Assembly: GCA_023390985.1 (NCBI GenBank)
Contig: JAEWBU010000171.1
Span: 9,708 to 73,707, forward strand
DNA: 64,000 nucleotides
Reading direction: 5' to 3'
Origin: Pseudomonadota bacterium
GTDB lineage: Bacteria; Pseudomonadota; Gammaproteobacteria; Burkholderiales; Burkholderiaceae_C
The notes beneath the pieces were generated by a model. The model was given only the letters and a program-made list of their open reading frames with translations. It was not told the DNA's origin and made no database searches. The translations under genes and the position numbers were made by a program. Below are positions 45,218 to 62,631 of the stretch, in pieces (the stretch's first letter is position 1; every line of letters starts with the position of its first letter).

Positions 45218-45292
45218 GCCCGACGCGAACCCCCTGAACCCGCTCGGCACCCCTTCGTGGGTGCCGGGCGTTCACAGAGAGAGAAAACGAGA

Positions 45293-45871
45293 ATGAAACT
45301 GATTCAGTCGCTCAGCGCGCTGCTGGCCCAAGGCGTTCAGATCAAGATGATGCTGCAGGCCAATGGCGATCAGATCCAGCTGGACATCCTGCCCGCGGGC
45401 AAGGAAAACAAGGCGGGCATCAGCCTGCCGCCCAAGTCGGTGACCGGAACGGCCGCCGAACTGGACGCGAACCTTGAGGCGTTCATGGAGAAGTACGGCC
45501 AAGGCGTGGCCAGGATCTCCAGCATCATCGCCGCTTCCGACGCCGACCTGGACCAGGCGGAGAAGGACGCCCAGGAGAAGGCGAAAGTCGCTCTGGACGA
45601 GAAGCGTGCGAAGAACGCAACGAAGCCGACCCCCAAGCCGGGCGCCGGGACCAAGGCGGGCGCCAAGCCTGCTCGCGATCTGGACGCCGGCCTCTCCGGC
45701 TCGGACGAAGACAACGAGGACGGCGAGAACGGCGGCCAAGGTGAGGAACCCCCTGGTGGGGAGACCGGCTCGGCCGGCGGCGCGCCGGTGGTGACTGGCG
45801 ACTCGCAGTCGTCCGGCGCCGCCGAAGGCGGCCAGCCGAACGCGCTGACGTCCGACATGTTCACCGTCTGA
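45293..45871 (+). CDS. PRTRC system protein E
   Basis: PKSVTGTAAELDA motif and low-complexity tail. Confidence 0.75.
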   Translation: MKLIQSLSALLAQGVQIKMMLQANGDQIQLDILPAGKENKAGISLPPKSVTGTAAELDANLEAFMEKYGQGVARISSIIAASDADLDQAEKDAQEKAKVALDEKRAKNATKPTPKPGAGTKAGAKPARDLDAGLSGSDEDNEDGENGGQGEEPPGGETGSAGGAPVVTGDSQSSGAAEGGQPNALTSDMFTV

Positions 45872-45886
45872 CGGGAGGTCACCGAC

Positions 45887-46279
45887 ATGCAAGTCGTCGA
45901 CCTGAGCAGGGAGTTCAAGTACAACTCCATCAAGCTGTCCGATCCGAACCCGGCGCTCACGCCGGAAGCGGTGAAGGATTTCTACCAGGCCCTGCAGTTC
46001 CCCGAGTTGAACAACTCGGTGGTCGAGGGTCCGGTCACGAAGGACGGCGTGGCGACGTACACCTTCACCCGCGCGGTGGGGTCCAAAGGCGCCACGGCAC
46101 GCGAGCTGATCGAGCGTACCCTCAACGCCGACCCTGCCACGACGCAGGAAAAGGCGCTGACGTTGATGGCCGCCTGCCAGCCGTTCACCGAACAGGCCAG
46201 GACGCTCGCGTCTGTGGTCGAAAACCGTTCCGGCAATCCGCTGCCGCTGCCAGCCTCTTCCTTCGGGATGTGGGGCTAG
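45887..46279 (+). CDS. PRTRC system protein C (ubiquitin-like) with C-terminal extension
   Basis: REFKYNSIKLSDPNPALTPEAVKDFY..PELNNSVVEGP..YTFTRAVGSKG followed by 62 more residues. Confidence 0.85.
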   Translation: MQVVDLSREFKYNSIKLSDPNPALTPEAVKDFYQALQFPELNNSVVEGPVTKDGVATYTFTRAVGSKGATARELIERTLNADPATTQEKALTLMAACQPFTEQARTLASVVENRSGNPLPLPASSFGMWG

Positions 46280-46306
46280 CAGGGACCGGACACACAAGCC
46301 ACTTCC

Positions 46307-46342
46307 AGCCCCGTCACCGCCTTGGTGACGGGGCTTTTTTTT
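46307..46342 (+). terminator. Intrinsic terminator
   Basis: AGCCCCGTCACC-gcctt-GGTGACGGGGCT followed by a T run. Confidence 0.85.
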
Positions 46343-46343
46343 G

Positions 46344-46384
46344 GACCCGCGAGAGTTGACCCCCATCACCTGCGCGCAAACAAT
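46344..46384 (+). promoter_or_regulatory. GACCCGCAG-box promoter, copy 7
   Basis: GACCCGCGA-GAG-TTGACC-N17-AACAAT, immediately after the terminator. Confidence 0.65.
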
Positions 46385-46442
46385 CAGGCTGTTTTCGCAT
46401 CTTGCGGACTCGCGCGGGGCTCTTCGCCACCGCGCCTTTCTA

Positions 46443-46488
46443 AAACCCGCGCGGGGCCTAGGTCCCGCGAGGGAGTCCGGGTCCTCGC
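46443..46488 (+). promoter_or_regulatory. Conserved structured 5' leader, copy 7
   Basis: GCGGGGCC/GGTCCCGC stem versus downstream GGGTCCTCGC. Confidence 0.5.
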
Positions 46489-46503
46489 TCTTAGGAGAAC
46501 CCG

Positions 46504-47601
46504 ATGACACACATCCAGGCAGCGGTGACGCAACCGGCTTGGCCGGGCTGTTTCCTGCTTCCCGCATTCGACGAGCAAGTGCCTGTCGCGATTGGCTCGG
46601 AACACGTCCGCGCGCGCATCCTGGCACGGCTCGCCAAGATCTCCGCTGAAGAGGGCGTGCCGCTGCCGGCGGGCGCGGACTTCAGCTCCGTCGAGAAGGT
46701 CGTAGCCGCGCAGTGGCAGCAGCATGTAGATGCCGCCTTCGGCGACCGGCCGATGGTTTCGGGCAAGCCAACTGTCGTTGTTCGCGACGACTGCATCGGC
46801 TTCCGCATCGACGCTCTGTCGAATCTCAACGTTTTCCAGCTCAAGCCCGTCATCACGGCGCTGGAGAAGAGCTGCAGCGGCCTCGGCTGGTTCGTGCTGT
46901 CGGTGCTGGACACCTGCCGGAGCCACGGGCACGAGTTCTACGACATGTGCCTTGCTGCCTGGGTGCTGGATCCGCACCACGGCGAGCTAGACAGCTTCAC
47001 CGATGAAGCCTACGTCCGCTTCCTGATCAACCACGAGGGGCTAGACCTCTCGGAGGATGACATCACGCCCGAGGTGATCGAGCAGATCAAGCCGGACCAC
47101 ATGTTCTGGCCGAGCGATGTGCTGGAAACCGTTGACGGTCATGCGCACTTGCTCGGCCGGGGCCGCGCCCCGAAGCCGCTGAGTGCTCGTGGTGCAACGA
47201 AGTGGCTCGCCGATCATGCGCGAGATCCCTTCGCACCCGTCGTGCAGCTGGCAACGAAGCTCAAGGCGGAGTTCACGGCCGACAAGGACCGGGCGTTCGT
47301 CTGGAGTCGATCACTTACCGACCAAGACGAGGACGTTCAGCCGATCGGGGCCGCGGCATTCCTCGCATGGGATGACCCGGGCCTGCTACTCGAGCTGGTC
47401 CAGCACCACGAAGAGTACGCCTACAACGGCGGCGGCGGCGCGGAGGAATACGCCCGAAGCCTGGTGGTTGGCATTGACCTGGAAGACGACGCGGACCTGC
47501 GCAAGTTGGTGCGGGACGCGAAGCGCTATTTCAAACGATGGGGGCTGATCAATCAGCTCCTGACTCACTTTCCGACGTGGGAAGGGAACGACGAGACATG
47601 A
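46504..47601 (+). CDS. PRTRC system protein F
   Basis: LEKSCSGLGWFVL motif; position between proteins C and B. Confidence 0.7.
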   Translation: MTHIQAAVTQPAWPGCFLLPAFDEQVPVAIGSEHVRARILARLAKISAEEGVPLPAGADFSSVEKVVAAQWQQHVDAAFGDRPMVSGKPTVVVRDDCIGFRIDALSNLNVFQLKPVITALEKSCSGLGWFVLSVLDTCRSHGHEFYDMCLAAWVLDPHHGELDSFTDEAYVRFLINHEGLDLSEDDITPEVIEQIKPDHMFWPSDVLETVDGHAHLLGRGRAPKPLSARGATKWLADHARDPFAPVVQLATKLKAEFTADKDRAFVWSRSLTDQDEDVQPIGAAAFLAWDDPGLLLELVQHHEEYAYNGGGGAEEYARSLVVGIDLEDDADLRKLVRDAKRYFKRWGLINQLLTHFPTWEGNDET

Positions 47602-48368
47602 ATGTCGACATCGACAACCATGGCGACAGCTACAAGCTGTCCGCCGCGGTGCTGGTCTACACGAATCAGCATCGACATCACGCAATCGCCACCAAGCACA
47701 TGGTGGAAGTGGACAACGACAGTCCCCGCATCCGGCCCGGCTCGCCCTTCAGCGTGGCCGACTACAAGGTGCTGACGAGGGCACTCGCGCCGCACGAGCA
47801 GAGGATGGTCTGGCAGGACCCGAGGCTGCTCGCCTCGGGCCAAGGACGCATGCTGTGGTGGACGCCGCCGCAGAAGCGCCCCTTGTTCTTCCAGAAGAGC
47901 AAGTACAACGCCGACACGTTCGACGGCAAGGGCGTCTGCCCGTGCCCCGGGCTTGTCTGGATGGCAGAGACGGGTCAGCAAGCTGCCCTGTACGTGTACG
48001 CCGTCTCCGGCAAAGAGAAGCCGTCCAAGGCGACGAGCCTGTTCCAGGCACCGTTCTTCAACGTGTGGTCGCAAGGCAAGGTCTGTGTCGGCAATGCGGC
48101 TCTCCCTCAGGAGGACGCCCGATCAGACCCCGACGCGTGGGAGCGCATGTTCTTCGGCTCCCGGTTCACCCACCCGAACTTCACCGAAGCCGACCGCCTG
48201 ACCAAGGGCGTGAAGCCGACGGAGTTCTGGAGGGGGCAACTGGCAAGGCCCAGCAAAGCGTTCCCCGAACGCGTGCTGGTCTCGCTTGACCTAACAGTGG
48301 GCGATCTCTGCGAGATCGACTTCGATAACAAGCTGGGGGAGATCCCCCGAGCACAAGGAGAGTTCTGA
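47598..48368 (+). CDS. PRTRC system protein B (prokaryotic E2-like)
   Basis: LWWTPPQKR, LFQAPFFNVWSQGKVCVGN, FFGSRFTHPN. Confidence 0.85.
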   Translation: MNVDIDNHGDSYKLSAAVLVYTNQHRHHAIATKHMVEVDNDSPRIRPGSPFSVADYKVLTRALAPHEQRMVWQDPRLLASGQGRMLWWTPPQKRPLFFQKSKYNADTFDGKGVCPCPGLVWMAETGQQAALYVYAVSGKEKPSKATSLFQAPFFNVWSQGKVCVGNAALPQEDARSDPDAWERMFFGSRFTHPNFTEADRLTKGVKPTEFWRGQLARPSKAFPERVLVSLDLTVGDLCEIDFDNKLGEIPRAQGEF

Positions 48369-48988
48369 TGTCCACGATGGACGAAGCAATCCTGACGACG
48401 TTCCCCTCGGTGGCGGTGCCGCCCAGCGGGAATCTTCCGCCGGCGTTGGCCGGCGGCATTCGCTACCTGGTCGCCAGAAGCGGCCTCTGGCAGGAGATCA
48501 GCCTTCCCTGGATTCGGGTAGTGCGGCCGTTCACCGGCCCGGGCGAAAGCCCGCTGCCCTATGGCGAGCTGCAGCCGGTCATCGACCTGCGCTGCGGCCC
48601 GCTGCCCATGGGGCTTGTGCGCGAGTTCATCGCTGGCGCGCGCGAAGCGGCTCCCCTGGAGTGCGCCGCGGCGCTGGTGTGGTCGGACGAAAGCAGCTGG
48701 CGGCTGGCGTGGCGAGAAGCCAAGTCGGCAGGAAGCGGTCACATCGACTACAACGAGGTGACGCTGGCGGACGGGGAGCACCTGGTCGTGGACATGCACA
48801 GCCATGGCCACTACGAAGCGTACTTCTCGCTCGAGGACAACGAGGACGATCGCGGAAGCATGAAGTTCAGCCTGGTGGTTGGCAGCTTCAACGGAGACGC
48901 GCCCACATCTGCGATGCGCCTGTGCATGCTCGGCCTCGTCCGAAATGCAGTGGCGGACCGCGACGGAAAGGTGGAGGTGAGCGCATGA
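48368..48988 (+). CDS. PRTRC system protein A (JAB peptidase)
   Basis: PLECAA, DMHSHGHYEAYFSLEDNEDD. Confidence 0.85.
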   Translation: MSTMDEAILTTFPSVAVPPSGNLPPALAGGIRYLVARSGLWQEISLPWIRVVRPFTGPGESPLPYGELQPVIDLRCGPLPMGLVREFIAGAREAAPLECAAALVWSDESSWRLAWREAKSAGSGHIDYNEVTLADGEHLVVDMHSHGHYEAYFSLEDNEDDRGSMKFSLVVGSFNGDAPTSAMRLCMLGLVRNAVADRDGKVEVSA

Positions 48989-49869
48989 GCGCGCAGCTGC
49001 ATCGGATACCGGCGGAGCTCGTCGTCAAGCAGGTCAACGTACTGCTCGTCGGAGCAGGCGGCACCGGCAGTCGCATCCTGGAGCGCCTTGTGTGTCTGCA
49101 CAAGGCGCTGCTGGCCCTCGGCCACCCGGCGGGACTCGCGGTGACGGTGATCGACCCGGACAAGGTGTCCCCCTCCAACATCGGGCGGCAGCTGTTCTAT
49201 CCGGGCGACGTGGGCCACTACAAGGCCGACGTCCTGGTGAACAGGGCGAACATGCAACTGGGCAACACCCGCTGGGAAAGTCAGCCGCACAAGCTGGGCA
49301 CAGCATCGTCGGGACTGGACGGCTTCAGTCTCGTGATCGGTGCGGTGGACAACCGCTCGGCACGACTGGCAATCCTGCGGTGCCTGGAGAACTGCGCCGG
49401 CGGCGTCCGCTACTGGCTGGACTGCGGCAACCGCGCTGAGGACGGCCAGGTCGTGCTCGGTCAGGTGGTTTCGCGCAAGCGAGCGACCGAGGACAAGCTG
49501 CGCCTGCCCCACGTTGGCGAGTTGTACCCGGAGCTGGTCGACCCGGCGGCCGAGGACCCCGACGATGGGCCGTCGTGCTCGCTGGCCGAAGCGCTGGAGA
49601 AGCAGTCGCTGTTCATCAACCCGGCCGTGGCGGACTTCGCCATGGTGCTGCTCTGGAACCTCTTCACCAAGGGCCAGATCGACACCCACGGCGCCTTCAT
49701 CAACTTGCAGCGGATGGTTGTATCGCCGCTGAAGGTGGATCCGGAGGTCTGGGCGCGCTTCGGCGTGATCCGTGACGGCCGCCGGCGCAAGCTCGTGCGA
49801 CCTTCGGTGATCGCGAAGCATGCGCTCAAGAACGCTGCCAACGACAGCAAGAAGACGATCGCCGCGTAA
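48985..49869 (+). CDS. PRTRC system ThiF/E1-family protein
   Basis: VGAGGTGS, DPDKVSPSNIGRQLF, AVDN, WLDCGN, PSCSLAEALEKQSLFIN. Confidence 0.9.
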   Translation: MSAQLHRIPAELVVKQVNVLLVGAGGTGSRILERLVCLHKALLALGHPAGLAVTVIDPDKVSPSNIGRQLFYPGDVGHYKADVLVNRANMQLGNTRWESQPHKLGTASSGLDGFSLVIGAVDNRSARLAILRCLENCAGGVRYWLDCGNRAEDGQVVLGQVVSRKRATEDKLRLPHVGELYPELVDPAAEDPDDGPSCSLAEALEKQSLFINPAVADFAMVLLWNLFTKGQIDTHGAFINLQRMVVSPLKVDPEVWARFGVIRDGRRRKLVRPSVIAKHALKNAANDSKKTIAA

Positions 49870-49921: not shown

Positions 49922-51700
49922 TCAACCGGAAGCGCTAACGGACGCCAACAGTTCTTTCCAGTTGGCCCTGACCTGCAGGTCGGCTTCCGCGATGTTCGTG
50001 TGCGCCGTGGAGCTGACCCAGAGGACGGCGCAGTTCTTCGCACGCGTCATGGCAACGTACATCAGGCGTCGCTCGGCCTCCGGGTGCAGGAGCGTCGAAC
50101 CGTCCTCGACCTTGTTGGCGTCGATGATGTGCACGGTTTCAAACTCCAGGCCCTTGGCTCCGTGCATGGTCATGAGGGTGATCTTCGCCGCCTCGTCGCG
50201 CTGCTTGCGCTGGACGGTCTGGAGCCTGGCGGACAGCGTGCCTTTGAGGCGGTTGGCCAGGATCTCGGAACACAGGGACAGCAGGTACTTGTGGTGATCG
50301 TTGCGCGTCCAGCTGCCGTAGACCTGGGCGACTTCCAGGACCACCTCTCGAACCGACCCGCCGGCGTGAGAGCCACCGGCGCGCAGCTGGCGGCGCCAGT
50401 AGCTCAAGTCCTTCGCGATTGCCTGAAGCGTTGACTTGTCCGCGGCGGTGGCCGAGCCGAGGTCGGGGACCGTGCCGTCCAGGAAGGACGCCACGTTGCC
50501 GCGGTGAACATCCAGCAGCTCATGCCGAGTGCTGGGGTCGATGTTTCGCAGCTGCAGCACCGACAGCATGCCCGCGGGGGAGCCATCGAGCAGAGTTTGC
50601 AGGAGACCCAAATAGCCCGCGATCGCGGATTGCTCCCAGATCGACTTCCCCAGGCGGGTGTAGCTGATGCCGCGGCCGCGCAGGACGATTTCCAATGCGT
50701 CGAGCGAGCGATTCGTGCGCGCGAGGACTGCCGCGTTGGTGTGCTTCTCCGGCAGGGCCTCCATCAGGTCCCCCACCATTTCGTTCTGCTTGGCGCCGGC
50801 CATGAAGGCTGCCATGCAGCCGCCGCTTGCCCGCTTGGCCACCAGGTGCTTGACCAGCCGTTTTTGGTTCCTAGAAATCAGGGTCACCGCCGGCGTCAGC
50901 ACCTCAGAGCGGCAGCGGAAGTTGTCGCCCAGTTCGATGCGGCGCGCCTGGAATGTGTCGAGGAACGACTTCATGCCCTCGTAGCCCAAGGCGTTGCGCC
51001 ACTCGTAAATGCTCTGGTCGTCGTCCCCTACGATCGTCACGCGGCAGCCCGCGCGCGCGTGGGCGAAGATCCACATGCGCTGCAGGCCGTCCGTGTCCTG
51101 GCCCTCGTCCACCAGCATGTCGGTGTAGGGCAGAGGGGCCAAGCTGCCGTCCGTGGCGCGCAGGGCCACATCCCGCATGACGGTGTACAGGTCGATGTTC
51201 CCGGTAGCTGCAACGAGCTTGCGGTAGTGGGCGACGACGCGGTGGGTCAGTGAGCTCACGTCCACGCTGTCCGGGTCGGCGGCGTACATCACCTGCTCGA
51301 ACCCCTTCTGGACGTCCGCCCAATCGTCCTTGTCCACGTTGCAGGCGAACGCGGCATCTCGATACAGGAAGTCCTGGGCCTGGGGTCCGAGCAGCTTCTT
51401 GGTGAGGCCGTCTCGCTTGAGGTGTCGCAGCGCGATGCTGTGGAACGTGCCGATCAGCACCCGGCTCTCGTCGGGGGCGCGGAGATTCGCTGCGGACAGT
51501 GCCGTCAGGAGGCGCTTGCGCATCTCCTCGGCGGCCTCCTTCGTAAAGGTGACCATCACCAGGGACCGGTCGGGATCGCGAAGGATGCGCCGTGCTTTGG
51601 CGATGGAGGTGGAAGTCTTGCCAGACCCAGGTCCGGCCACGATCAACAGGTGTCCGTCGTGGTTGACGGCCTCGAGCTGGGGCGTGGTGAGTTTGGACAT
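49922..51700 (-). CDS. UvrD/Rep-family SF1 helicase
   Basis: AGPGSGKT, VDEGQD, VGDDDQSIYEWR, NFRC, TMHGAKGLEF, ERRLMYVAMTRAK. Confidence 0.92.
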   Translation of the reverse strand: MSKLTTPQLEAVNHDGHLLIVAGPGSGKTSTSIAKARRILRDPDRSLVMVTFTKEAAEEMRKRLLTALSAANLRAPDESRVLIGTFHSIALRHLKRDGLTKKLLGPQAQDFLYRDAAFACNVDKDDWADVQKGFEQVMYAADPDSVDVSSLTHRVVAHYRKLVAATGNIDLYTVMRDVALRATDGSLAPLPYTDMLVDEGQDTDGLQRMWIFAHARAGCRVTIVGDDDQSIYEWRNALGYEGMKSFLDTFQARRIELGDNFRCRSEVLTPAVTLISRNQKRLVKHLVAKRASGGCMAAFMAGAKQNEMVGDLMEALPEKHTNAAVLARTNRSLDALEIVLRGRGISYTRLGKSIWEQSAIAGYLGLLQTLLDGSPAGMLSVLQLRNIDPSTRHELLDVHRGNVASFLDGTVPDLGSATAADKSTLQAIAKDLSYWRRQLRAGGSHAGGSVREVVLEVAQVYGSWTRNDHHKYLLSLCSEILANRLKGTLSARLQTVQRKQRDEAAKITLMTMHGAKGLEFETVHIIDANKVEDGSTLLHPEAERRLMYVAMTRAKNCAVLWVSSTAHTNIAEADLQVRANWKELLASVSASG

Positions 51701-51755
51701 AGGCTAGGAAAAAAATGAAGCCGCCCGGGGGCGGCTTTCAAGCTGCTACTGCAGA

Positions 51756-52685
51756 TCAGGCGCTGGTCGCACCGGCCGGCGCGACCTCGCCAGCAGGCGC
51801 CGCCGCGGCAACGGAGTGGGCGGGGTCGTCCGCGGCGGGCTTCTTGCGCGCGCTGCCCGTCTTGCGGGCCGGCGCGCCGGCGGCGGCTGCAGAGGCGGCT
51901 GCAGCGTCGGAAAGCATCTGGGACGCGGCATCACCGGTCATCGGGGTGTCGCCGTCCTGCGTAGCCTCGTGCTGGGATTCCTGGGAGAACTTCTCGATCT
52001 CCTTGCCCTGCTCGGCCAGCAGCTGGTCGCGTTGCGGATCGGCCTGGCCCTTGCTGTGCTGCTCGCGCTGGAGGCGCTGTGCTTCGCGGTACAGCTTGAA
52101 GACCTCCTGCTCCATGGTCGCCCGGAAGGCGCGCAGAGCCTTCTTGCAGGTCCATTCCACCTGCGCGCGTTGCTGCGAATCCAGCAGACCCCACAGGTTG
52201 GCGCTGCCGGAGAGGATGTAGACGCGATCCATCAGCATCAGCATTTCCAGGTACACCCGCGCCTGGGCCGCGATGATCGGCACGTCCACCTTGAGGGTCT
52301 GCGGATACAGGCTCAGGGCCTCGTCGCGGTGCTTGCCGGCCTGCTCCAGGATCTTCTTCAGACGCTGGTCCCAGTTGCCGATCAGCGTCTGGATGTTCTG
52401 CAGCTTCGCGGTGCCGAGGGTGGCGAAGCGATCCAGAAGTTCGGTGTTGAAGCCGTGCCAGGAGCGGTACTGGTACTCCATGTACAGCTGCTTGGACAGG
52501 TAGGCGAAGTCCTTGCGGAAGAAGCGGATCGCCACGGGCGAGGCGAGCGTCTGGTCTTCCAGGACGAGGACGGGGCTTTGAAACGTGTGGACGAACTTCT
52601 CGTCGAACAGGTTCTGGATCGCGCTGACGTGCCGCGCACGGCGCTCCGCCAGGGCCGTGTCGACGGCGGGGGGATTGGTGGTCAT
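51756..52685 (-). CDS. AcaB/DUF1845-like transcriptional regulator candidate
   Basis: YPQTLKVDVPIIAAQARVYLEMLMLMDRVY..LWGLLDSQQR resembles, from memory, the IncC AcaB helical domain; same divergent position relative to an AAA/ssb/DUF3150 operon. Confidence 0.55.
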   Translation of the reverse strand: MTTNPPAVDTALAERRARHVSAIQNLFDEKFVHTFQSPVLVLEDQTLASPVAIRFFRKDFAYLSKQLYMEYQYRSWHGFNTELLDRFATLGTAKLQNIQTLIGNWDQRLKKILEQAGKHRDEALSLYPQTLKVDVPIIAAQARVYLEMLMLMDRVYILSGSANLWGLLDSQQRAQVEWTCKKALRAFRATMEQEVFKLYREAQRLQREQHSKGQADPQRDQLLAEQGKEIEKFSQESQHEATQDGDTPMTGDAASQMLSDAAAASAAAAGAPARKTGSARKKPAADDPAHSVAAAAPAGEVAPAGATSA

Positions 52686-52853
52686 GTCGGGACTCCTGAA
52701 CAGAAAAGACTGCCCAGTGAATCTAGGCTCGGGGCTGGCCTACCCTGCGCGCGCCAAACTGCTATTTCGGGCGATTGGCGCGCGATGTGAGCCTCCGGCA
52801 CGCAAGGGACGGCGGCCGGCGAATGGGACGCGATGCCTCGCTGGGGCAAGTTG

Positions 52854-52895
52854 GACCCGCATCCGTTGACCGCCGCGCCAAGGCGATTTCATAAT
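52854..52895 (+). promoter_or_regulatory. GACCCGCAG-box promoter, copy 8
   Basis: GACCCGCAT-CCG-TTGACC-N18-CATAAT. Confidence 0.7.
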
Positions 52896-53009
52896 GAGCG
52901 CGTCACTCGGTAGCCGAGGGGCAGTGCACCTGGGACACTCAAACCTTCCGAGGCACGACAGGCCCTTCGCGACGGCGGATGGCAGCCGCAAGGCAGAACT
53001 AACAAGAAG

Positions 53010-53208
53010 ACGGCCGCTGCAACCATGGCGGCCCATGGGGGGCGCCAAGTGCGTCCCGTCCATGAAAGCGCAGGGCAAGACCTGACGGCTAGCGAACTAG
53101 CTGTGAGGTCTTTCTCGACGCAAGTCGGTAAAGGCTGCGAGCAATCGCAGTTGCAGACCAGGTGTCTGCCATCAACTAGGTGAGACGCACCCTTCGGGTG
53201 TCCTCATC
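53010..53208 (+). ncRNA. Candidate structured non-coding RNA (tandem hairpins with stable tetraloops)
   Basis: Hairpins at 53077-53112 (CGAA loop), 53116-53127 (GCAA), 53133-53152 (GCAA), 53153-53169 and 53179-53208 (cTTCGg); no credible ORF. Confidence 0.55.
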
Positions 53209-53210
53209 AA

Positions 53211-53266
53211 CATCGTCAACTCCCTCCAAGGGCACTCCCATGCCCTGAGGGCGGAGCGCTTTTGGG
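53211..53266 (+). promoter_or_regulatory. Conserved structured 5' leader, copy 8
   Basis: AGGGCA/TGCCCT stem versus CCAAGGGCACTCC/GGAGCGCTTTTGG. Confidence 0.55.
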
Positions 53267-53288
53267 ATCACTTCGTTAAGAGGTCATC

Positions 53289-53411
53289 ATGAAAGCTGCT
53301 GTCGTCAGCATCGCCGTCGCCATCGTGGGTTACTTCGCTGTCGGCACCCTGGATACCGGCAAGGCGATCCAGGCCAAGCGCGCTGCAGCCATCGAGGCCG
53401 CTGCGCAGTGA
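53289..53411 (+). CDS. 40-aa membrane/secreted peptide (not in ORF track)
   Basis: MKAAVVSIAVAIVGYFAVGTLDTGKAIQAKRAAAIEAAAQ; AAGAGG RBS; typical codons. Confidence 0.6.
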   Translation: MKAAVVSIAVAIVGYFAVGTLDTGKAIQAKRAAAIEAAAQ

Positions 53412-53606
53412 ACGAGACTCGGGAAGGCCTGTGGCCTTCCCGCGGTCCCATCTCTCTTCCCACTTCCACCCTTCGCGCTCCACCGCCTTCAACGGCCATT
53501 GCCAAGTCGCCCACCACAGGGCATTTCGCAATGTCCGGTGTTCAACACCGCGACCGTCTGCCTCAGTGCAGACATTCACCGCCGGGCGCTTCCTGCGCCC
53601 GCGCAT

Positions 53607-53652
53607 CATCAACCCGACCGGGGCTCCACGCCCCGGAAGGGTTGTGGGCTCC
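53607..53652 (+). promoter_or_regulatory. Conserved structured 5' leader, copy 9
   Basis: CATCAAC, CCGGGGC/GCCCCGG stem versus GGGGCTCCAC/GTGGGCTCC. Confidence 0.6.
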
Positions 53653-53712
53653 AGTCGAAAGCTGGAGGCCTAACGATGCAAGTCATCACCGCCTGCTGGC
53701 CGGAGAAATCCG

Positions 53713-54339
53713 ATGCAGGCCACAGCCGCTAGCGGCGGCTACCAGCTGCACCTTGCCCTCTTCCCGCACCACGTCATCCAGGCTGTGGAGCAGGAGGCAG
53801 AGCGCAAGGCCCAGCGCCGCGAGCACCGCGCCGCGGCAGCCCCCGCGCGACGCCGACCACGCATGTGGTCGGACACGCGGGAGCTGTTCGACGCGCTCGA
53901 TCCCCAGCAGCTGCAAGAGCCGCTGCTGGAGACCGGCGGCACCAACGAACTGGACTGTGACCCTTCCCTGGACCTGTACGAACCGGTAGAGGTCGAAGCC
54001 GCGCAAGCGGTCGAGGACTCCGCCGGATGGTCGGACCAGGCGATGCTGGAGCTGCACGAAGCGGTGCTCATGCACTCGCTGGAGGCGCTCAAGTCTCGGG
54101 GTAACGGTGCAGAGAAGCGCGACGTCCTCAAGTGGATCTTCGCGCCCCAACGCTACGTGGCCACGCTGACGGTTGGCGGCCACGCCGAGGAGGTTCTTCT
54201 GCCTCCTGAACTCACCCCCTTCTCCTTCGAGATGTGCTGTCGCATCTGCAACTACCACTCGGATGCCTTCATGGACGGTCTGAAGTACGTGTTGCGCAAG
54301 AAGGGGCTCGGACACCTCTTTAACGAGATTGCCCAATGA
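53713..54339 (+). CDS. Hypothetical protein
   Basis: GGAG RBS; coupled to the AAA ATPase gene. Confidence 0.7.
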   Translation: MQATAASGGYQLHLALFPHHVIQAVEQEAERKAQRREHRAAAAPARRRPRMWSDTRELFDALDPQQLQEPLLETGGTNELDCDPSLDLYEPVEVEAAQAVEDSAGWSDQAMLELHEAVLMHSLEALKSRGNGAEKRDVLKWIFAPQRYVATLTVGGHAEEVLLPPELTPFSFEMCCRICNYHSDAFMDGLKYVLRKKGLGHLFNEIAQ

Positions 54340-55337
54340 ACGAGAACCAAACGACGGCGGCGCCTGCGGCGCTGTCCGCACCCAAGGCGCGCGCGTACAC
54401 CGTGCGCGACACCTTCGGCCTGACGAGCGCACCGCCCACGGCGGTCATCGCGGGCCTGGAACCCGGCCTGGCCAACGTGCCGCCGGCGAACCAGCACTAC
54501 GTCTTCGAAGAAGACACGCTGCGCCAGCTGCACATGTTCTGGGCCAGCGGCAACCGCGCGCTGCTGATCGAGGGGGACCCCTCGGCCGGCAAGACCTCGC
54601 TCTTCGAGCAGTTCCACGCGCGCCTGAACGTGCCCCTGTACAAGGTGGCCTGCTCCCCGAGCACGGAGACCTACCACCTCATCGGCCAGTACGTGCCGCG
54701 CGAGGACGGACACGGCCTGCGCTGGGTGGATGGTCCGGTCGTGCGGGCGTGCCGTGAGGGCACCTCGGTGCTGCTGGACGAAGGCAACACCCTGGACCCT
54801 GGCGTGGCCACTGGGATGAACATGCTCCTGGAGGGCTACTCCTGGACCATCCCGGAGACTGGCGAGACCATCATGCCTGCCAGGACCACGCGGTTCTTCA
54901 TGACGCAGAACGCGGTGGACAGCAAGGTCATGGTGGCCGGACGCCAAGTCCAGGACGCCGCCTTCGATGACCGCTGGTCGTACATGCGTGTCACCTATCT
55001 CCGCCCCGAGCTGGAGGAAGAGCTGATCGTGAAGTACCTGAGCAACGGCAAGGTGCCGCCGGAGGTGGTGCAGAACACCGCCAAGATCGTGGTGGCTGTG
55101 GCCAACAAGGTGCGCGAGGCGTTCCGCAACGACGCCCCGGGCATCGACAAGCCGCTGTCCACGCGCGTGCTGATGCGCTGGGCCATGTACACGCTGATGT
55201 ACACCGGCCCGATGCGCGCCAAGCGAAAGAGCGCGCTGCACTACGCCGTCAACCAAGCGGTCCCAATGTCGCGCGACATGGCCGCGGCGCTGCAGGAGCA
55301 GATCACGCTGGTGGCGGGCTACGGCCCGGACCTGTGA
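54336..55337 (+). CDS. MoxR-like AAA+ ATPase (CbbQ/NorQ/CobS type)
   Basis: GDPSAGKTS, WVDGPV, LLDEGN, MTQN, QDAAFDDRW, LSTRVLMRW. Confidence 0.88.
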   Translation: MNENQTTAAPAALSAPKARAYTVRDTFGLTSAPPTAVIAGLEPGLANVPPANQHYVFEEDTLRQLHMFWASGNRALLIEGDPSAGKTSLFEQFHARLNVPLYKVACSPSTETYHLIGQYVPREDGHGLRWVDGPVVRACREGTSVLLDEGNTLDPGVATGMNMLLEGYSWTIPETGETIMPARTTRFFMTQNAVDSKVMVAGRQVQDAAFDDRWSYMRVTYLRPELEEELIVKYLSNGKVPPEVVQNTAKIVVAVANKVREAFRNDAPGIDKPLSTRVLMRWAMYTLMYTGPMRAKRKSALHYAVNQAVPMSRDMAAALQEQITLVAGYGPDL

Positions 55338-56065
55338 TGAGCGAGCTCTACACGATCTACCAGCACCCCGAGAGGGGTGACTGGGGATTCGCCAGGGCCG
55401 CGGGTGGCCAGAAGGTGCGCACGGCAGCAGTCGAGCGCGCCGGACGGCTGCGGATCGTCGACGTCCATCCGGTCAGGCTGGGCGCCATGTTGCAGGACAA
55501 GGTGCGCAGTGGCTTCAAGCAACTGCCGCAACCGAAGTACCTGCACGTGGCCGGCGAAGGCGACGCTCTCCAGGGCGAATTCGTCACCGAGCACCCGGAC
55601 CTGCGCGTCGTGCACCTGCACGGCGAGCGGATCTTCTTCGTCGCGATCCCCAGCAACGGGGACGTGGGCGAGTTGGTCGCGTCGTGGCGCCAGGCTCTGG
55701 ACGACGCACCCGGGCCGGCCGAGCACGAGCGCGAGGCGTGGTTGCAGCACTGCAGCCGCGCAACGCAGTACGTGCCTGCGCTGAGCAACGACCCCAGCGC
55801 AGCCCTCGTGGTCGCGCAGTGGGCGAAAAGCGGTGGCCATCCGATGGTCGCCGGCGAGATCTGTCTGCCCACCGGGGCGCCGGAGAAGCAACGCTACGAA
55901 TGGCGTGCCTACCTGGCTAACTGGATGAAGGCCGACCTGGTCGCGGAAGCGCTGGCCCACCTGGGCTGGCCGCTCCATGAGGTGCTGGCGGTCACGCCTG
56001 CACCAGTCACAACAACCGAATCTGCCGAGGACTGGTTCCAGACCTCACAGCAGTGTTCCTTCTAG
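55337..56065 (+). CDS. Hypothetical protein
   Basis: Coupled ORF of about 242 aa. Confidence 0.7.
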   Translation: MSELYTIYQHPERGDWGFARAAGGQKVRTAAVERAGRLRIVDVHPVRLGAMLQDKVRSGFKQLPQPKYLHVAGEGDALQGEFVTEHPDLRVVHLHGERIFFVAIPSNGDVGELVASWRQALDDAPGPAEHEREAWLQHCSRATQYVPALSNDPSAALVVAQWAKSGGHPMVAGEICLPTGAPEKQRYEWRAYLANWMKADLVAEALAHLGWPLHEVLAVTPAPVTTTESAEDWFQTSQQCSF

Positions 56066-56075
56066 GAAAAACCAG

Positions 56076-57089
56076 ATGGACAAACTGTTCTACTACCTGG
56101 GCCTGAGCATCTTCGGCATGCTGGCCATGGGTGTGCGGATCTTCTTCATCGTGACGCGCCCCGCCGTTCGCGGCGTGGCCACCAGACTCGGCGGCAAGCC
56201 GCCGCAGCTGCGCACGGTGAAGGTGGAAACCGGACCTGCCTCAGTGCAGGTCCAGGTGCCCGAGGCGATCGAAGCCGAGGACACGGGGCCGGAGACGGTC
56301 TTCATCAACGAAAGCAACTTCGCTGGTGCTGACCGCATCGTCTCGATCAAGTTGGATCCGCCGGTCGGCACGCTGTACCTGCGCCTCTTCCACAAGGAGC
56401 GCACGGTGAAGCGGGAGCTGATCATCTGGGAGCCGAAGCTCAAGCGCCTCATGGGCGGCCGCAAGCACGAGCTCCCGGACGTGAGGTACGACGCGCTGGA
56501 CGGCCTCGACCCGATCAAGGACGAGTCGATCAGCATGGTCGAAGCGCTCATCAACGAGCGCGGCAACGAGAAGGTGAAGGGCGTCAAGCCGCCGAAGAAG
56601 GCGGACCCGCTCACTCGCCCCAAGGACTCGGAGGCGCCTGCCAGGGCGCAGCCTGCTCCGCAACCTGCGGCTCCTGCGGCTCCTGCGGCTCCTGCGGCTC
56701 CTGCGCCGGTGGCGCAACTTGCCATGCGGCAGGCGGCTCCCGAGCAACGCCAGCAGGTCACGGCGCCCGATGACCGGGTGTTCGTGCCCAAGGCGCGCGA
56801 TGGCTTCACCTACATCGGTCAGCTGCTCCAAGGTGGGCCGCGGACCGTGAATCCCCGCGGGCGCAGTCCGTACGAGGTGTTCGAGGCCACGATCAGGCTC
56901 GACAACGGAGCGGAACTGCCGCTGCGCGGCGCAGAGCTCGAGCGCGCGCTGGTGCAGGCCGGATGCGAGAAGGGCGACAGAATCTCGGTCACGCCCATGG
57001 GCAAGGTGCCCGTGGAACTTGGCAACGGCGGCAGGGGCGAGAAGAACCTGTACAAGGTCCAGAAGATGGCCCAAGCCGCGAGGAACTGA
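56076..57089 (+). CDS. Membrane-anchored hypothetical protein with PAA-repeat linker
   Basis: N-terminal TM; (CCTGCGGCT)4 at about 56664-56699. Confidence 0.7.
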   Translation: MDKLFYYLGLSIFGMLAMGVRIFFIVTRPAVRGVATRLGGKPPQLRTVKVETGPASVQVQVPEAIEAEDTGPETVFINESNFAGADRIVSIKLDPPVGTLYLRLFHKERTVKRELIIWEPKLKRLMGGRKHELPDVRYDALDGLDPIKDESISMVEALINERGNEKVKGVKPPKKADPLTRPKDSEAPARAQPAPQPAAPAAPAAPAAPAPVAQLAMRQAAPEQRQQVTAPDDRVFVPKARDGFTYIGQLLQGGPRTVNPRGRSPYEVFEATIRLDNGAELPLRGAELERALVQAGCEKGDRISVTPMGKVPVELGNGGRGEKNLYKVQKMAQAARN

Positions 57090-57093
57090 TCGC

Positions 57094-57510
57094 ATGCCTT
57101 TCGTGATGAACGCAACCGGCCGCCTGGCTCATGAACCGCAGCTGAACGTCGGAAGGGGTATGCCCTGGACGGAGTTCCGGCTGTTGGACAACCGGTTCAA
57201 GGCCGGCGAGCCGATCGTGGAAGCGGTGACGTTCGTGGCCTTCGGCGAGTTGGCGGAGCAGTTCTGCCAGCGAGTCGAGAAAGGCCAGGAGATCACCGCG
57301 TGGGGTCACCAGCAGACCGAGAAGTTCACGGGCAACGACAAGGTCGAGCGGACCCGTACGCGCTTCGTGCTCTTCGAGTTCGTGCCCGGTCGGCGCCCTG
57401 CGCGATCCCGAGCCGCGGAGAACGAGGCGCGCACCGCGGCGCCGCCGCGCACACCTTCGGGTGACGATGGCGGCAACGACGACGGCGCCGGTCGCGATTC
57501 GATGATCTAA
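57094..57510 (+). CDS. ssb: Single-stranded DNA-binding protein (SSB-like)
   Basis: GRLAHEPQL, FVAFGELAE..VEKGQEI..G..TEKF, acidic tail. Confidence 0.75.
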   Translation: MPFVMNATGRLAHEPQLNVGRGMPWTEFRLLDNRFKAGEPIVEAVTFVAFGELAEQFCQRVEKGQEITAWGHQQTEKFTGNDKVERTRTRFVLFEFVPGRRPARSRAAENEARTAAPPRTPSGDDGGNDDGAGRDSMI

Positions 57511-57558
57511 ATCAACAACAACCCTGCCGGGGGCGATCCCCGGTGGGGGACAGCCCTC
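57511..57558 (+). promoter_or_regulatory. Conserved structured 5' leader, copy 10
   Basis: ATCAAC, CCGGGGG/TCCCCGG stem versus downstream GGACAGCCCTC. Confidence 0.5.
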
Positions 57559-57581
57559 GCGCAGCTCAAAGGGAGACGCGA

Positions 57582-57812
57582 GTGTGCGTTGAACGACTGA
57601 CGCAAGCCGTCAAGAAATTCCAGGACAGCACGGGAGAGGAAGCCCTGCTGGTGGTACTGCACGACGACGAGGACCAGATCATTGGTCTTCACCGGATCGG
57701 ATTCGAGGTGGGCGCAGGCCTGCTCGTTGACGGCCGGCCCGCCGGCTATGAGTTCTACCGCCAGGTGCATGACTTCCACGCCCTGCAAGAGCCGCCCGCG
57801 CTGCTGCACTGA
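57582..57812 (+). CDS. Small hypothetical protein
   Basis: GGGAG RBS, GTG start. Confidence 0.55.
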   Translation: MCVERLTQAVKKFQDSTGEEALLVVLHDDEDQIIGLHRIGFEVGAGLLVDGRPAGYEFYRQVHDFHALQEPPALLH

Positions 57813-57829
57813 GCCCCGAAGGGGGTTCA

Positions 57830-57870
57830 GACCCGCAGCAGTTGCGGACTGGCCGGACCAATCTGAGAAT
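57830..57870 (+). promoter_or_regulatory. GACCCGCAG-box promoter, copy 9
   Basis: GACCCGCAG-CAG-TTGCGG-N17-GAGAAT. Confidence 0.65.
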
Positions 57871-58201
57871 TTCCCACGAGACACCTGAAAGGGTGCTTTG
57901 TGGAAAGCGCCTTCCCAGTGGGCAGAGGCGCTTTCTGCAGTGCATTTCCCCCGCTCTTCGGAGCGAATGCGGAGCTGGAACACCGCATGCCGCCTCACCG
58001 GCGGTCACTCCAGCCTTCAACCACGGCACCACCCGCACGCCATCTGCGTGAGCGCGGCTGCCAGCCAACTTCCTATTCGGCGCGACAGCCAGTCGTCGCC
58101 GGCTTCCTCTCGGGATCGGCCAATGCGTCTCCTCCCGTCGGGTGGGTGCATTGGCGGGTCTCGCGTGTCTTGACCCATTTCCAATCACTTAGGAGAGTCC
58201 C

Positions 58202-61126
58202 ATGAATATCGAAAGTGCGGCGACGCTCGAAGCCCTGGAGCCCCAGGCGCTGTCGACGTACGTCTTCCGCGAAAAGTACGCTGCGCCGGGGGAGCAGACG
58301 CACCTCGACCTGCATCGACGCGTCGCCAAGGCCCTGGGCCGCGACAGCGCGCAGGAACAGCGCTTCCTGTCCACGCTGGTCAACGGTTTCATCCCTGGTG
58401 GTCGCATCAACGCGTCAGCCGGCTTGGACCGTAAGACCACGCTCGTCAACTGCTTCGTCCAGCCTCTGGCCGATTGCATGACGGGCAACCTCCACGGTAT
58501 CCCCGGCATCATGGATGCTCTGGGCGAGGCCGCTGAAACCATGCGCCAAGGCGGCGGTGTGGGTTACGACTTCAGCCCGCTGCGCCCCTCGCGTGCCCGC
58601 GTCAAGGGCACGGAATCGGAAGCCTCCGGGCCTGTGAGCTACATGCGTGTCTTCGACCGCATGTGCGACACGGTGGAGTCGGCCGGCTCGCGCCGCGGCG
58701 CCCAGATGGGCGTGCTGCGCGTCGACCACCCTGACATCGAGTCCTTCGTGGACGCCAAGAAGGGACCGGACTTCACTGCCATGGGCCTGCCGCAGGCGAT
58801 GGCGGACCAGATGATGCGGATGATCCGCACCAACGACAAGTTCGGCGCGGCCGTTCGCAAGGCGTTCGCGACGCTGAGCAACTTCAACATCTCGGTCGGC
58901 GTGACGGACAAGTTCATGCAGGCCGTGGTCGACGATGCCCAGTTCGACCTGGTGCACGTCGCCGAACCCAGCTTCCCGGCCCTCGGCCAGGTTGCCGATG
59001 CCGACGGCGTGACCCGTTTCATCTACCGCACGGTGCGCGCGCGCGACCTGTGGACCAGGATCCTGCGCAACGCGTACGAGACCGGCGACCCGGGCATCGT
59101 GTTCCTGGACACGATCAATCGTCTGAACAATCTGAGGTACTGCGAAGTCATTGCAGCTACCAACCCGTGCGGGGAGCAGCCGCTTTCGCCGTATGGCTGC
59201 TGCGATGTGGGCCACGCCAGTTTGGTGCGGTTCGTGCGCAATCCTTTCACGCCGGCAGCGCGCTTCGACTGGAGCGCGTTCAAGCAGGTGGTGGCTGGGG
59301 GCGTGGAGCTGCTGGACCGCGTTCTGGACGTGACCAAGTGGCCCTTGCCGCAACAGCAAGCCGAGGCCGAAGCCAAGCGCCGCATCGGGGCGGGGTTCAC
59401 CGGCCTGGGCAGCGCGATGGCGATGCTGGGCCTGCGCTACGGCGCGGTGGAGTCGGCGGCGTTCGCCGCCGAGGTCACTCGCACGATGCGCGACACCGCG
59501 TACCGCAAGTCGGTGGAGCTCGCGCGCGAGTTGGGCGCCTTCCCGCTGTTCGACGCGGACAAGTATCTGGAGGAAGGAACCTTCGCCTCCACGCTTCCCG
59601 AGGACATCAAGGAGGACATCCGGCGGTACGGAATGCGAAACAGCCACACGCTGTCGCTCGCTCCGGTTGGCACCGGGTCATTGGCCTTCGGAGACAACTG
59701 CAGCTCCGGCGTCGAGCCGATCTTCGACCTGAATGCGTTCCGCAACGTGCGGACTGGCAACGGTGACGAGAAGAAGCTGTGGAGCGCTGAGGAGTACGCG
59801 CTGCGCGTGCTCAAGCTGGTCCGCGGCGAAGGAGCCACGGACGATGCGCTGGTGACGGCGCAGGAGCTTTCGGTTGACGATCATCTGCGCGTGCTCAACG
59901 CGGTCGCGCCGTACATCGACGCCGCCGTGAGCAAAACGGTGAACGCGCCGCGCGATTACCCGTTCGAGGCCTTCCAGGAGACCTACATGAACGCCTGGCG
60001 CAGCGGCCTGAAAGGGATCACCATCTACAGGCCCAACGACATGCTGGGCTCGATTTTGGTTTCGGCCGAGGAGCAACGCCAGAAAGAACTGCTCGCCGCC
60101 GGCGAGACCGCCTCCAACGATGACCTGGACCGCCGGGTGACGCTGAAGGACGCGCCGAACCTGCTCACGCAGATGAAGTGGCCGAGCCGGCCCGACGTGG
60201 CCGCCGAGGGCAAGACCTACCCGGTCAAGCACCGCAACGGGAACTTCGCCGTGGTGGTCAACCACTGGGTCAACGGAAGCCAGCATCCGCTGGAGGTGTA
60301 CATCGCAGGAAACGAAGCTCCGCGCGGACTCGGGGCCATCGCCAAGAGCCTGAGCGTGGACATGCGCACCGACGACGCAGCGTTCCTGGAGATGAAGCTG
60401 GATTCGCTGCTCAATACCAAGGGCGAGGACGCGTTCGAGATGCGTGACCCGGCCACGGGCCAAACGGTGCTGATGCCGTCCCTGACGGCGGGCTTCGCGA
60501 AGGTGGTGAAGCACCGTCTTGCCGAGTTGGGGGTGCTGGGCGATCAGGCCAGCTCCCCGATGATCGATGCGCTGTTCTCGCGACGCGAGCCGAAGACCGG
60601 CGCCGACGGCGCGATCGGCTGGCACGTGGACATCAACAACCCGGTGACGGGCGACGACTTCCTGCTGCACACCAAGGAGATAAAGCTGCCCGATGGGTCG
60701 ATCCGCCCCTACTCGGTGTGGCTCTCGGGCCACTACCCGAAGGTGCTTGACGGCCTGATGAAGGTGCTGTCTATCGACCTGCGCATCAGCGACCCGATGT
60801 GGGCCGTGATGAAGCTGCGCAAGCTACTGAGCTTCGGCGAGGTGCGCGGCGACTTCATGGCACCGGTCCCCGGCGAGCAGCGCCAGGCCAACTACCCGAG
60901 CACGGTGGCCTACATGGCTGCGGTGCTCCTGGCCCGGATGGAAAAGCTCGGGCTGGTGCGTGGTGAGGCCGAAGCGGCGGCATCCGACGAGGGCGCTCCG
61001 CTGCGCGGGGGCAACCTGCTGGCCGGCTCCGGAAAGCAGTGCCCCAGCTGCCACGCCATGACCTTGCACAAGGTCAGCGGCTGCGAAGAGTGCAGTAGCT
61101 GCGGGTACACCGGCAGCTGCGGCTGA
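58202..61126 (+). CDS. nrdJ: Class II (adenosylcobalamin-dependent) ribonucleotide reductase with C-terminal Zn-ribbon
   Basis: GFIPGGRI, NCFV, GGGVGYDFS, RRGAQM, TNPCGEQPL, APVGT, KGITIYRP, terminal CPSC..CSSCGYTGSCG. Confidence 0.92.
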   Translation: MNIESAATLEALEPQALSTYVFREKYAAPGEQTHLDLHRRVAKALGRDSAQEQRFLSTLVNGFIPGGRINASAGLDRKTTLVNCFVQPLADCMTGNLHGIPGIMDALGEAAETMRQGGGVGYDFSPLRPSRARVKGTESEASGPVSYMRVFDRMCDTVESAGSRRGAQMGVLRVDHPDIESFVDAKKGPDFTAMGLPQAMADQMMRMIRTNDKFGAAVRKAFATLSNFNISVGVTDKFMQAVVDDAQFDLVHVAEPSFPALGQVADADGVTRFIYRTVRARDLWTRILRNAYETGDPGIVFLDTINRLNNLRYCEVIAATNPCGEQPLSPYGCCDVGHASLVRFVRNPFTPAARFDWSAFKQVVAGGVELLDRVLDVTKWPLPQQQAEAEAKRRIGAGFTGLGSAMAMLGLRYGAVESAAFAAEVTRTMRDTAYRKSVELARELGAFPLFDADKYLEEGTFASTLPEDIKEDIRRYGMRNSHTLSLAPVGTGSLAFGDNCSSGVEPIFDLNAFRNVRTGNGDEKKLWSAEEYALRVLKLVRGEGATDDALVTAQELSVDDHLRVLNAVAPYIDAAVSKTVNAPRDYPFEAFQETYMNAWRSGLKGITIYRPNDMLGSILVSAEEQRQKELLAAGETASNDDLDRRVTLKDAPNLLTQMKWPSRPDVAAEGKTYPVKHRNGNFAVVVNHWVNGSQHPLEVYIAGNEAPRGLGAIAKSLSVDMRTDDAAFLEMKLDSLLNTKGEDAFEMRDPATGQTVLMPSLTAGFAKVVKHRLAELGVLGDQASSPMIDALFSRREPKTGADGAIGWHVDINNPVTGDDFLLHTKEIKLPDGSIRPYSVWLSGHYPKVLDGLMKVLSIDLRISDPMWAVMKLRKLLSFGEVRGDFMAPVPGEQRQANYPSTVAYMAAVLLARMEKLGLVRGEAEAAASDEGAPLRGGNLLAGSGKQCPSCHAMTLHKVSGCEECSSCGYTGSCG

Positions 61127-61346
61127 TGTGAACCAGGTGCGTTGCTTCGGCGCGCACCAACAGGCTCCCTCCGAGAGGAGGGGCCTGCCTGGAGGGTTGT
61201 GCATCAGCTCTCCAGACAGGTCGCCAGCGCCCCCACGGGGCGCCTGCATCGAATCGGCGCGCCCCTCGCACATGTCGGCCTCGGCTGCCCTTTCAGGCCC
61301 ATCCGATCGCGGGCAAGGCTGCGGGCGTGTGTTGGCAAGAAGGCCA

Positions 61347-61387
61347 GACCCTCAGCAGTTGCCAGCTGCAGCAGCCCGGAATAGAGT
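61347..61387 (+). promoter_or_regulatory. GACCCGCAG-box promoter, copy 10
   Basis: GACCCTCAG-CAG-TTGCCA-N17-TAGAGT. Confidence 0.6.
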
Positions 61388-61432
61388 CGAATCGCTCGGA
61401 CTACCTCCGATCGGCAGGCCTTCATGTGCCTG

Positions 61433-61489: not shown

Positions 61490-61508
61490 ATCCTTTTACG
61501 GAGAACCC

Positions 61509-62585: not shown

Positions 62586-62590
62586 ACCAC

Positions 62591-62620: not shown

Positions 62621-62631
62621 CAAAGGGATCC

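Follow-up and report, generated by a model that had tools for sequence, protein, structure and literature searches.

A conserved, modular structured RNA leader at the head of an AAA/ssb/DUF3150 operon on conjugative elements of Comamonadaceae

Here we describe a structured RNA that precedes a long operon on the + strand of a 64,000-nt stretch of DNA (the window). Comparison with homologs identifies the region of about 390 nt behind the operon's promoter as a real, conserved, modular RNA leader on the + strand, built from a 5′ domain (D1, 52902–53064), a middle module (M, 53071–53210) and a predicted two-state translational switch at the ribosome-binding site (L, 53216–53291), with a small gene for a 40-aa peptide (53289–53411) behind it. 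D1 and M are the new, uncatalogued part of the leader; L is already known. The window comes from a large conjugative element of the MOBH type. On the − strand side lie uvrD and a divergent regulator-like gene (51756–52685), and on the + strand the leader is followed by p208 (53713–54339), an AAA_5/CbbQ ATPase, two genes without assignment, SSB, a class II ribonucleotide reductase and DUF3150; the operon behind p208 runs from 54336 to 64000, where the window cuts into a large gene that carries a VWA annotation in a relative. Named plasmids of 300 kb from Hydrogenophaga and Polaromonas have the same gene order, and more distant gene-order kin occur on plasmids of Azonexus, Paraburkholderia, Ralstonia, Comamonas and Rhodoferax. 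The IncC locus is similarly ordered (divergent gene, small genes, AAA, ssb, DUF3150), and the window's AAA gene is ~31% identical to the IncC CobS-like AAA gene at the vcrx089 position. From gene order and identity, the window operon is related to the hde anti-defence operon of IncC. Bet and exo are absent from the window. As presented in the sections of Roy 2020 (PMC7498323) that deal with it, the genes of the IncC hde operon are transcribed as one unit from the first promoter and confer restriction and CRISPR evasion. The name AcaB-like, which an earlier note based on the window sequence alone had given to the divergent gene (− strand), holds only at a distance: its protein is unmatched by the AcaB Pfam family PF08900 (gathering score 27) and BLAST finds no match to the IncC gene in the same position, but it is 48% identical to a relative that scores 21 bits on PF08900 (below the cut-off, E 3e-4), so that AcaB/DUF1845 likeness is distant. 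The window also carries a complete PRTRC cluster (43421–49869, +; ParB, protein E, ubiquitin-like, alpha-helical F, E2-D, JAB and ThiF), four 25-nt direct repeats of iteron- or parS-like appearance between parA/parB and a replication-like gene (34753–35166), and, upstream of parA (32525–32647), a pair of 39-nt repeats that both contain a palindrome, GCTTGCATCGATGCAAGC.

Several lines of evidence indicate that selection in this region acts on the RNA of the + strand, as the earlier note had suggested. A 405-nt stretch reaches a minimum free energy of −186.6, against −151.7 ± 6.3 for shuffled sequences (z −5.55), and none of 100 shuffles was as good. Every hairpin of the chain that had been proposed is present in the sequence, at 53012–53033, 53034–53064, 53072–53117, 53116–53127, 53135–53150 and 53153–53169, with CTAG-CGAA-CTAG at 53089–53100 and cUUCGg at 53188–53200. 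Overlooked, however, were the modular build and the most conserved part of the leader, 52902–52994, with its GUGCA motif, G·G-mismatch hairpin and cGACGg hairpin. The description of ~390 nt free of ORFs also needs amending: a 63-codon frame exists (52894–53085), but its start lies inside the −10 box and homologs have 1-nt indels there. Homologs were collected in several ways. BLAST of 201 related genomes gave 12 matches at E ≤ 0.001, a figure that includes the window itself and several chance-level matches; a 28-nt D1 pattern gave 10 genome loci and 16 metagenome loci, with 0 matches in IMG/VR viral contigs; and a back-translation scan of genomes for the AAA gene yielded no confirmed locus. 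Among all loci gathered there were 35 pattern matches, all adjoining an acaB-like gene or p208, which reduce to 25 distinct homologs, and all 25 sit in the acaB-like/p208-AAA-ssb-DUF3150 locus of Comamonadaceae MOBH conjugative elements. The + strand is the better folded by RNA energy in 22 of the 25, and by DNA parameters in 23. GNRA loops number 29 on the + and 1 on the − strand (1.15 in shuffles) and cUNCGg loops 11 and 1 (0.4 in shuffles), in line with the claim that such loops are enriched on the transcribed strand, although the CGAA loop of the hairpin chain in the earlier note is not a GNRA loop. Since DNA-type cGNAg triloops are enriched too (10 on the +, 2 on the other strand, 0.65 in shuffles), loops alone cannot separate RNA from DNA. 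Comparison of homologs further gave 87 G-U against 9 A-C on the + strand, and an in-house, tree-aware covariation test in the manner of R-scape, in which D1 and M were examined separately, found significant covariation for 6 of the 33 D1 pairs and for 5 of the 27 M/L pairs. Compensatory changes, loop bias, strand-biased folding and G-U excess thus agree with one another, and the hairpins are conserved in relatives. At the gathering threshold, Rfam 15 had 0 matches in the window and 0 over 149.5 kb of a relative plasmid, and a search of 52700–53750 at the E-value level gave only chance-level ones; over 10 loci it gave one match, the DUF3085 motif (RF02959, 41 bits), elsewhere in locus L049 (8616–8676). 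In the literature we found no account of D1 or M; the supplement of PMC5737381 may hold DUF3085 or related motifs. Apart from the leader, a site at 2763–2836 (+), a hairpin with a CU-rich loop followed by a terminator, matches the Burkholderia anti-hemB sRNA below threshold (37 bits vs. 49.5, E 5e-5).

The promoter is of the sigma70 type, with −35 TTGACC (52866–52871), an 18-nt spacer and −10 CATAAT (52890–52895) on the + strand, and a predicted start at ~52902. Its boxes and spacing are as previously read, and it is the sole promoter-like site in a scan of 51500–55000 (0.3 in shuffles). All 25 homologs match the consensus at 8–10 of 12 positions, with the end of the −10 box 27–29 nt 5′ of GUGCA. 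In the 23 regions compared before p208, no promoter exceeds 8/12 or keeps a fixed place. A −10-like hexamer stands just before M in 7 of 25 homologs, including L015, the sequence used for the RNA check below, so M and the peptide gene may have their own promoter there; the window has no such site before M. Farther downstream, a second promoter-like site, TTGCCA-17-TAGAGT (61359–61387, +), precedes the L switch of the DUF3150 gene.

D1 begins at the predicted transcription start and, on the + strand, consists of a triloop hairpin (H1, 52902–52922), the GUGCA motif (52924–52928), invariant in homologs, a hairpin with a G·G mismatch and an 11-nt CAC..AAC loop (H2, 52929–52953), a cGACGg hairpin (H3, 52962–52983), a GNRA hairpin followed by an A-rich linker (H4, 52985–52994), and two further hairpins (H5, 53012–53033; H6, 53034–53064). 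Across homologs, 94.6% of 792 cells are paired, compared with 36–54% in slid controls, and double changes occur in 25 of 33 pairs, a level that 0 of 500 shuffles reach. Every row has H2 fully paired on both sides of its G·G mismatch. Part of the invariance seen in the letters of the D1 loops is built in, since homologs were collected with the D1 pattern; that pattern left the covarying columns 34/59 and 35/58 free. The D1 covariance model also finds the operon heads of plasmids of Azonexus (L049, E 4e-8) and Rhodoferax (L055, E 2e-5), and has no match at the IncC operon head. D1-like cores seen by eye in L050 and L052 scored E 1.1 and E 0.2 and one in L053 gave no match, and these were not counted as members; L061 was likewise set aside, being one weak match over 150 family genomes with the operon proteins absent nearby. 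A pseudoknot between NNUGG of D1 and the 5-nt loop of M, which fits the window, was rejected, as it does not fit most homologs by eye; the covariation test, run on D1 and M separately, gave no signal for it. Hairpin-rich leaders of 460–680 nt occupy the same place in distant loci (L049 3500–4180, L055 3575–4170, L050 4012–4476, L053 3405–3865); their 3′ parts differ, and a CAGGC-N3-GCCUG hairpin is common among them.

On the + strand, the M module comprises a long irregular helix of ~20 bp with a UGA/UGA (G·G) centre (53072–53117), an overlapping CGAC-GCAA-GUCG hairpin (53116–53127), a GNRA hairpin (53135–53150), a hairpin with a 5-nt loop (53153–53169) and a variable cUUCGg hairpin that extends to ~53207. 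The helix is 92% paired and the 5-nt-loop hairpin 100% paired among homologs, and the G·G is found in 23 of 26 rows. At the base of the helix, CUCG can pair with the helix itself or else join the next hairpin, which gives M two possible folds. Behind the peptide gene lies M′ (53491–53607, +), with a helix, a CGAU/AUCG hairpin and a small hairpin in an M-like layout. M′ is conserved in 23 of 25 homologs, the remaining two stopping at contig ends, and its layout and motifs, shared with M, make it likely a paralog of M. The M′ model scores the window's M at 12 bits, and in about 7 of 17 loci it scores M at 8–13.5 bits, no better than its reverse-strand self-hits. A weak match to this model is also found at 22862–22959 on the − strand (13.9 bits, E 0.019). 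The modules can be combined in various ways: 4 of 25 homologs are without M and peptide yet keep D1 upstream of M′, L026 has M without the peptide, L004 and L011 have M and the peptide without D1, and tandem units of M, peptide and hairpin are present in L043 (two, different), L034 and L023, where the third peptide unit repeats the first without a difference, perhaps through an error of assembly. In L002 (1892–2098), an extra 68-aa hydrophobic ORF stands behind M-L, and the peptide gene has moved behind a partial module.

The element that the earlier note took for a leader copy is indeed present, and belongs to a plasmid-wide family of L switches. Each is formed by a YCAACYCCC hairpin and a hairpin that masks the ribosome-binding site (RBS), and is predicted by folding to act as a two-state switch that represses translation. 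A second L switch follows M′ (53608–53678, +), others precede genes at 6752, 15617, 27549, 43347, 46435, 57514 and 61441 (+), and one more lies just beyond the window at the contig position equal to 65117. At least nine genes in the window have an L family site in front; a relative has ~25 such sites within 150 kb and the IncC hde region has seven, many of the matches being weak when taken singly. In 43 elements, which were hand-picked and are not independent, the anti-SD pairs with its own 5′ arm at −13.3 kcal/mol (−9.5 when permuted) and with its own RBS at −12.0 kcal/mol (−8.1 when permuted), energies that 0 of 10,000 permutations match in either case. When the 5′ AACCC was blocked in silico, only 8 of 39 switches gained more than 0.1 in RBS accessibility. 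Garriss reportedly described, in 2013, a translational attenuator of SXT bet. L has the features of the SXT/IncC attenuators, that is, an AACCC-led hairpin and then a hairpin hiding the SD and start codon, and in the portion of Roy 2020 (PMC7498323) concerned with vcrx089 an RBS-sequestering structure precedes that IncC gene. The attenuators of SXT bet and IncC vcrx089 share their build with the L elements, and the seven elements of the IncC hde region sit in a homologous operon, but the resemblance covers only the last ~75 nt of the leader; D1 and M are unmatched at the IncC operon head, where the promoter is activator-dependent (AcaCD). The 76-nt DUF3085 motif (RF02959) is another relative in part, since it ends in the same UCAACCC..GGG with which the L switch starts, and its GUAGCUGG..CCAGC helix resembles H2 of distant D1 homologs; it has no match in the window at gathering or at E ≤ 2. 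The DUF3085 match in the Azonexus operon (L049) stands directly before an L switch, and in the IncC operon (L054, ~3830–3870, 4870–4910 and 9715–9750) a pseudoknot-like UAGCUGG..CAGC element was seen by eye before L switches. Two genes of the PRTRC cluster have L switches in front, and a small ORF after ssb (57570–57812, +) has an L-like hairpin ahead, with small genes of similar size after ssb in relatives.

The 40-aa peptide gene (+) represents a conserved family and has a basic start, a hydrophobic stretch and a C-terminal helix in which R-x-A-x-I-E is conserved. Its frame is open as the earlier note stated, but it is not unannotated throughout, being listed as hypothetical in relatives. 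The peptide is found in 18 of 25 homologs and absent in 5, and two more run off contig ends. As the five without it keep D1, the peptide appears dispensable. A profile made from it finds 30 protein clusters, none with a function; it matched no Pfam, NCBIfam or PHROG family, its peptide atlas matches (0.78) were at chance level, and the genome has one copy. Behind it, a strong hairpin (53421–53441) and a C-rich, G-poor tract make 53421–53480 (+) a predicted transcription stop or 3′ end. In the window, the tract has 19 C, 2 G and no U-tract, and the hairpin was not called by our terminator scan. The hairpin is strong in 24 of 24 units scored, mostly followed by a C-rich tract and with a U-tract in only some of them, and homologs without the peptide have, by eye, no clear terminator before p208.

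The sequence of this part of the leader also occurs in RNA libraries. This check used, in place of the window itself, homolog L015, whose leader sequence is shared by L013 and L057. Twenty RNA-labelled runs hold 7–16% of the words of the 2.25-kb L015 query, and each of the eight runs compared (of 24 listed) has a contig within L015 2917–3261, a stretch that takes in the 3′ portion of M, then L, then the peptide ORF as far as the hairpin. D1 (2696–2895) is also covered in one run, and one has a p208 contig. Contigs start at L015 2930–2942, just 3′ of the M helix (2881–2926), in six of the eight runs and at 2917 in one. Such contigs carry no strand, level or true ends, and no DNA run was compared; two of the eight runs are only guessed to be RNA, and three may be one campaign. 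Given these contig limits, we draw no conclusion from the runs that leave the acaB-like gene, uvrD and M′ (eight of eight) or D1 (seven of eight) uncovered. All that is observed is that RNA libraries from several studies contain the M-L-peptide sequence, which speaks against the region being untranscribed, a possibility that the earlier note had raised.

The first large gene, p208 (+), encodes a protein of an unnamed family with a basic N-terminal helix. An ORF of 18 codons (53676–53732, +) overlaps its start, and ORF comparison finds such an ORF, of 18–21 codons, in 22 of 23 M′ regions, so placed that it is likely translationally coupled to p208. Homologs of p208 head the operon in six of six distant betaproteobacterial loci, while none is found in the IncC locus or in two acaB-only loci. 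The family comprises 140 clusters at 50% identity, and at least seven R/K among the 20 N-terminal residues are found in 89 of 137 members, compared with 7 of 137 in a control region. No family was assigned to p208, and its structural model (pLDDT 62) had no Foldseek match in viral or PDB libraries. Since the fold matches nothing, RNA binding by p208 is a guess, and we name it only as a candidate partner of the leader. Terminator-like sites are not enriched in the downstream operon of the window (8 vs. 7.0 in shuffles) or of a relative (23 vs. 20.8) in a crude scan that misses Rho sites.

How might the leader work? Because the promoter looks constitutive, control must come later, and the absence of a consensus promoter before p208, the masked RBSs and the stop-like hairpin likewise point to control after initiation. 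Among the functions offered in the earlier note, a cis-acting leader of the AAA/ssb operon fits best, and a free-standing sRNA or control of the peptide fits less; as regards the latter, L is predicted to hide the RBS of the peptide, but D1 is kept where the peptide is missing. Our tentative reading, plausible though short of probable, is that the leader is a cis-acting read-through gate for the AAA/ssb/DUF3150 operon, in which D1 and M load a factor. In a settled host the promoter would fire constitutively, L would keep translation off, and most transcripts would end at the hairpin behind the peptide. The helices of D1 and M, both with a conserved G·G mismatch, may form a loading platform for a plasmid-encoded factor, for which the basic N-terminal helix of p208 is a candidate. 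Once loaded, the factor would modify the elongating polymerase or the transcript, leading to read-through and opening of the L switches, by analogy with N/nut, conAn or put antitermination. A gate of this kind is suggested by the fixed place of the promoter, the covariation of D1 and M and the co-occurrence of p208 at operon heads; it is weakened by the unenriched terminators, the lack of a U-tract, and the presence of M and peptide without D1 in L004 and L011, and it stays tentative on this balance.

Other explanations have to be weighed against this gate. An activator-dependent promoter may lie before p208, and a relative encodes a FlhC-family activator. It is rather unlikely, though conceivable, that M and M′ act instead on translation or processing, with an RNase III-type cut or ribosome standby flipping L, and D1 serving only as a 5′ stabiliser. 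M or M′ always stands directly 5′ of an L switch and start codon; 9 of the 43 L switches are ≤ 11 nt from an upstream stop codon, as for coupling, and these two have M or M′ there instead. The RNA contigs that start just 3′ of the M helix in six of eight runs would fit as well, but the ends of contigs do not reveal those of RNAs, and the picture would be the same if reverse transcription stopped at the helix. The conservation of the D1 loops and the fixed place of D1 at the promoter exceed the needs of a stabiliser, and the AACCC block opened few RBSs. An abundant short transcript acting in trans, as a protein sponge or as a setter of L-switch states, strikes us as unlikely. The constitutive-type promoter, compact stable fold and presence in RNA libraries speak for it, as does the common trigger needed by the many L switches of the window and its relative; yet the leader is single-copy and always in cis at the operon head, a long complement was not found elsewhere in the contig, and IncC has L switches without a D1 match.

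Less likely still is a unit resembling type I toxin-antitoxin systems, in which, as in tisB, hok and ldr, a stored, silent mRNA is activated by 5′ processing, here for a membrane peptide. A hydrophobic peptide of 40–48 aa with a predicted masked RBS and a 3′ hairpin, the tandem M-peptide-hairpin units and the RNA contigs centred on the M-peptide unit are all in keeping with such a unit. However, no antisense partner was found elsewhere in the contig (an overlapping cis-antisense RNA being invisible to that search), none of 17 members of the peptide family has a Pfam toxin match, the peptide is absent in 5 of 25 D1-bearing homologs, and M′ and L also precede a non-toxin gene. We regard it as highly improbable that the element works as single-stranded DNA in transfer, as a Frpo-like promoter or priming signal. 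It does head an ssb-containing operon, and the cGNAg triloops and DNA-parameter folding both favour the + strand. In a Frpo-type promoter, though, the template strand folds to form the promoter, whereas here it is the sense strand that folds; further points against are the ordinary double-strand promoter conserved upstream, the enriched cUNCGg loops and the occurrence of the sequence in RNA libraries.

By analogy only, the closest counterparts in mode of action would be structured leaders known from phages and plasmids, such as put, conAn and N/nut. ConAn is a bipartite antitermination system of pLS20-type plasmids, with several terminators in the operon and a dedicated, co-encoded protein. 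The present leader is similar in that an RNA and a possible protein partner (p208, basic and co-occurring) head the operon of a conjugative element; unlike conAn, it occurs in a Gram-negative host, precedes an operon of anti-defence rather than transfer type, has the RNA upstream of the candidate protein gene, and lacks an excess of terminators within the operon. HK022 put, in the account of the element in PMC9378689, is ~70 nt long with two stems and needs no protein. As in put so described, a structured RNA lies directly behind the promoter, has conserved non-canonical positions and is followed by a long operon. At ~310 nt and with at least 10 hairpins, D1-M is set apart from put by the size and layout that this account gives. 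The 5′ UTR hairpins bound by Aca proteins, as depicted in the relevant part of PMC13551039, are much smaller than this leader.

The IncC hde operon lets conjugative elements evade restriction and CRISPR, as set out in the parts of PMC7498323 on its role. It is a speculative and improbable idea that D1-M and p208 together form a new licensing system, in which the polymerase is carried through the operon and L switches are opened plasmid-wide; if it were true, the D1-M/p208 complex would supply the trigger that is missing for the attenuators of translation in SXT/IncC kin. A covarying RNA of 310 nt with invariant loops and G·G helices offers exact targets for mutation, along with a candidate partner protein, and it adds an uncatalogued RNA family to the large conjugative plasmids of soil and water Comamonadaceae.
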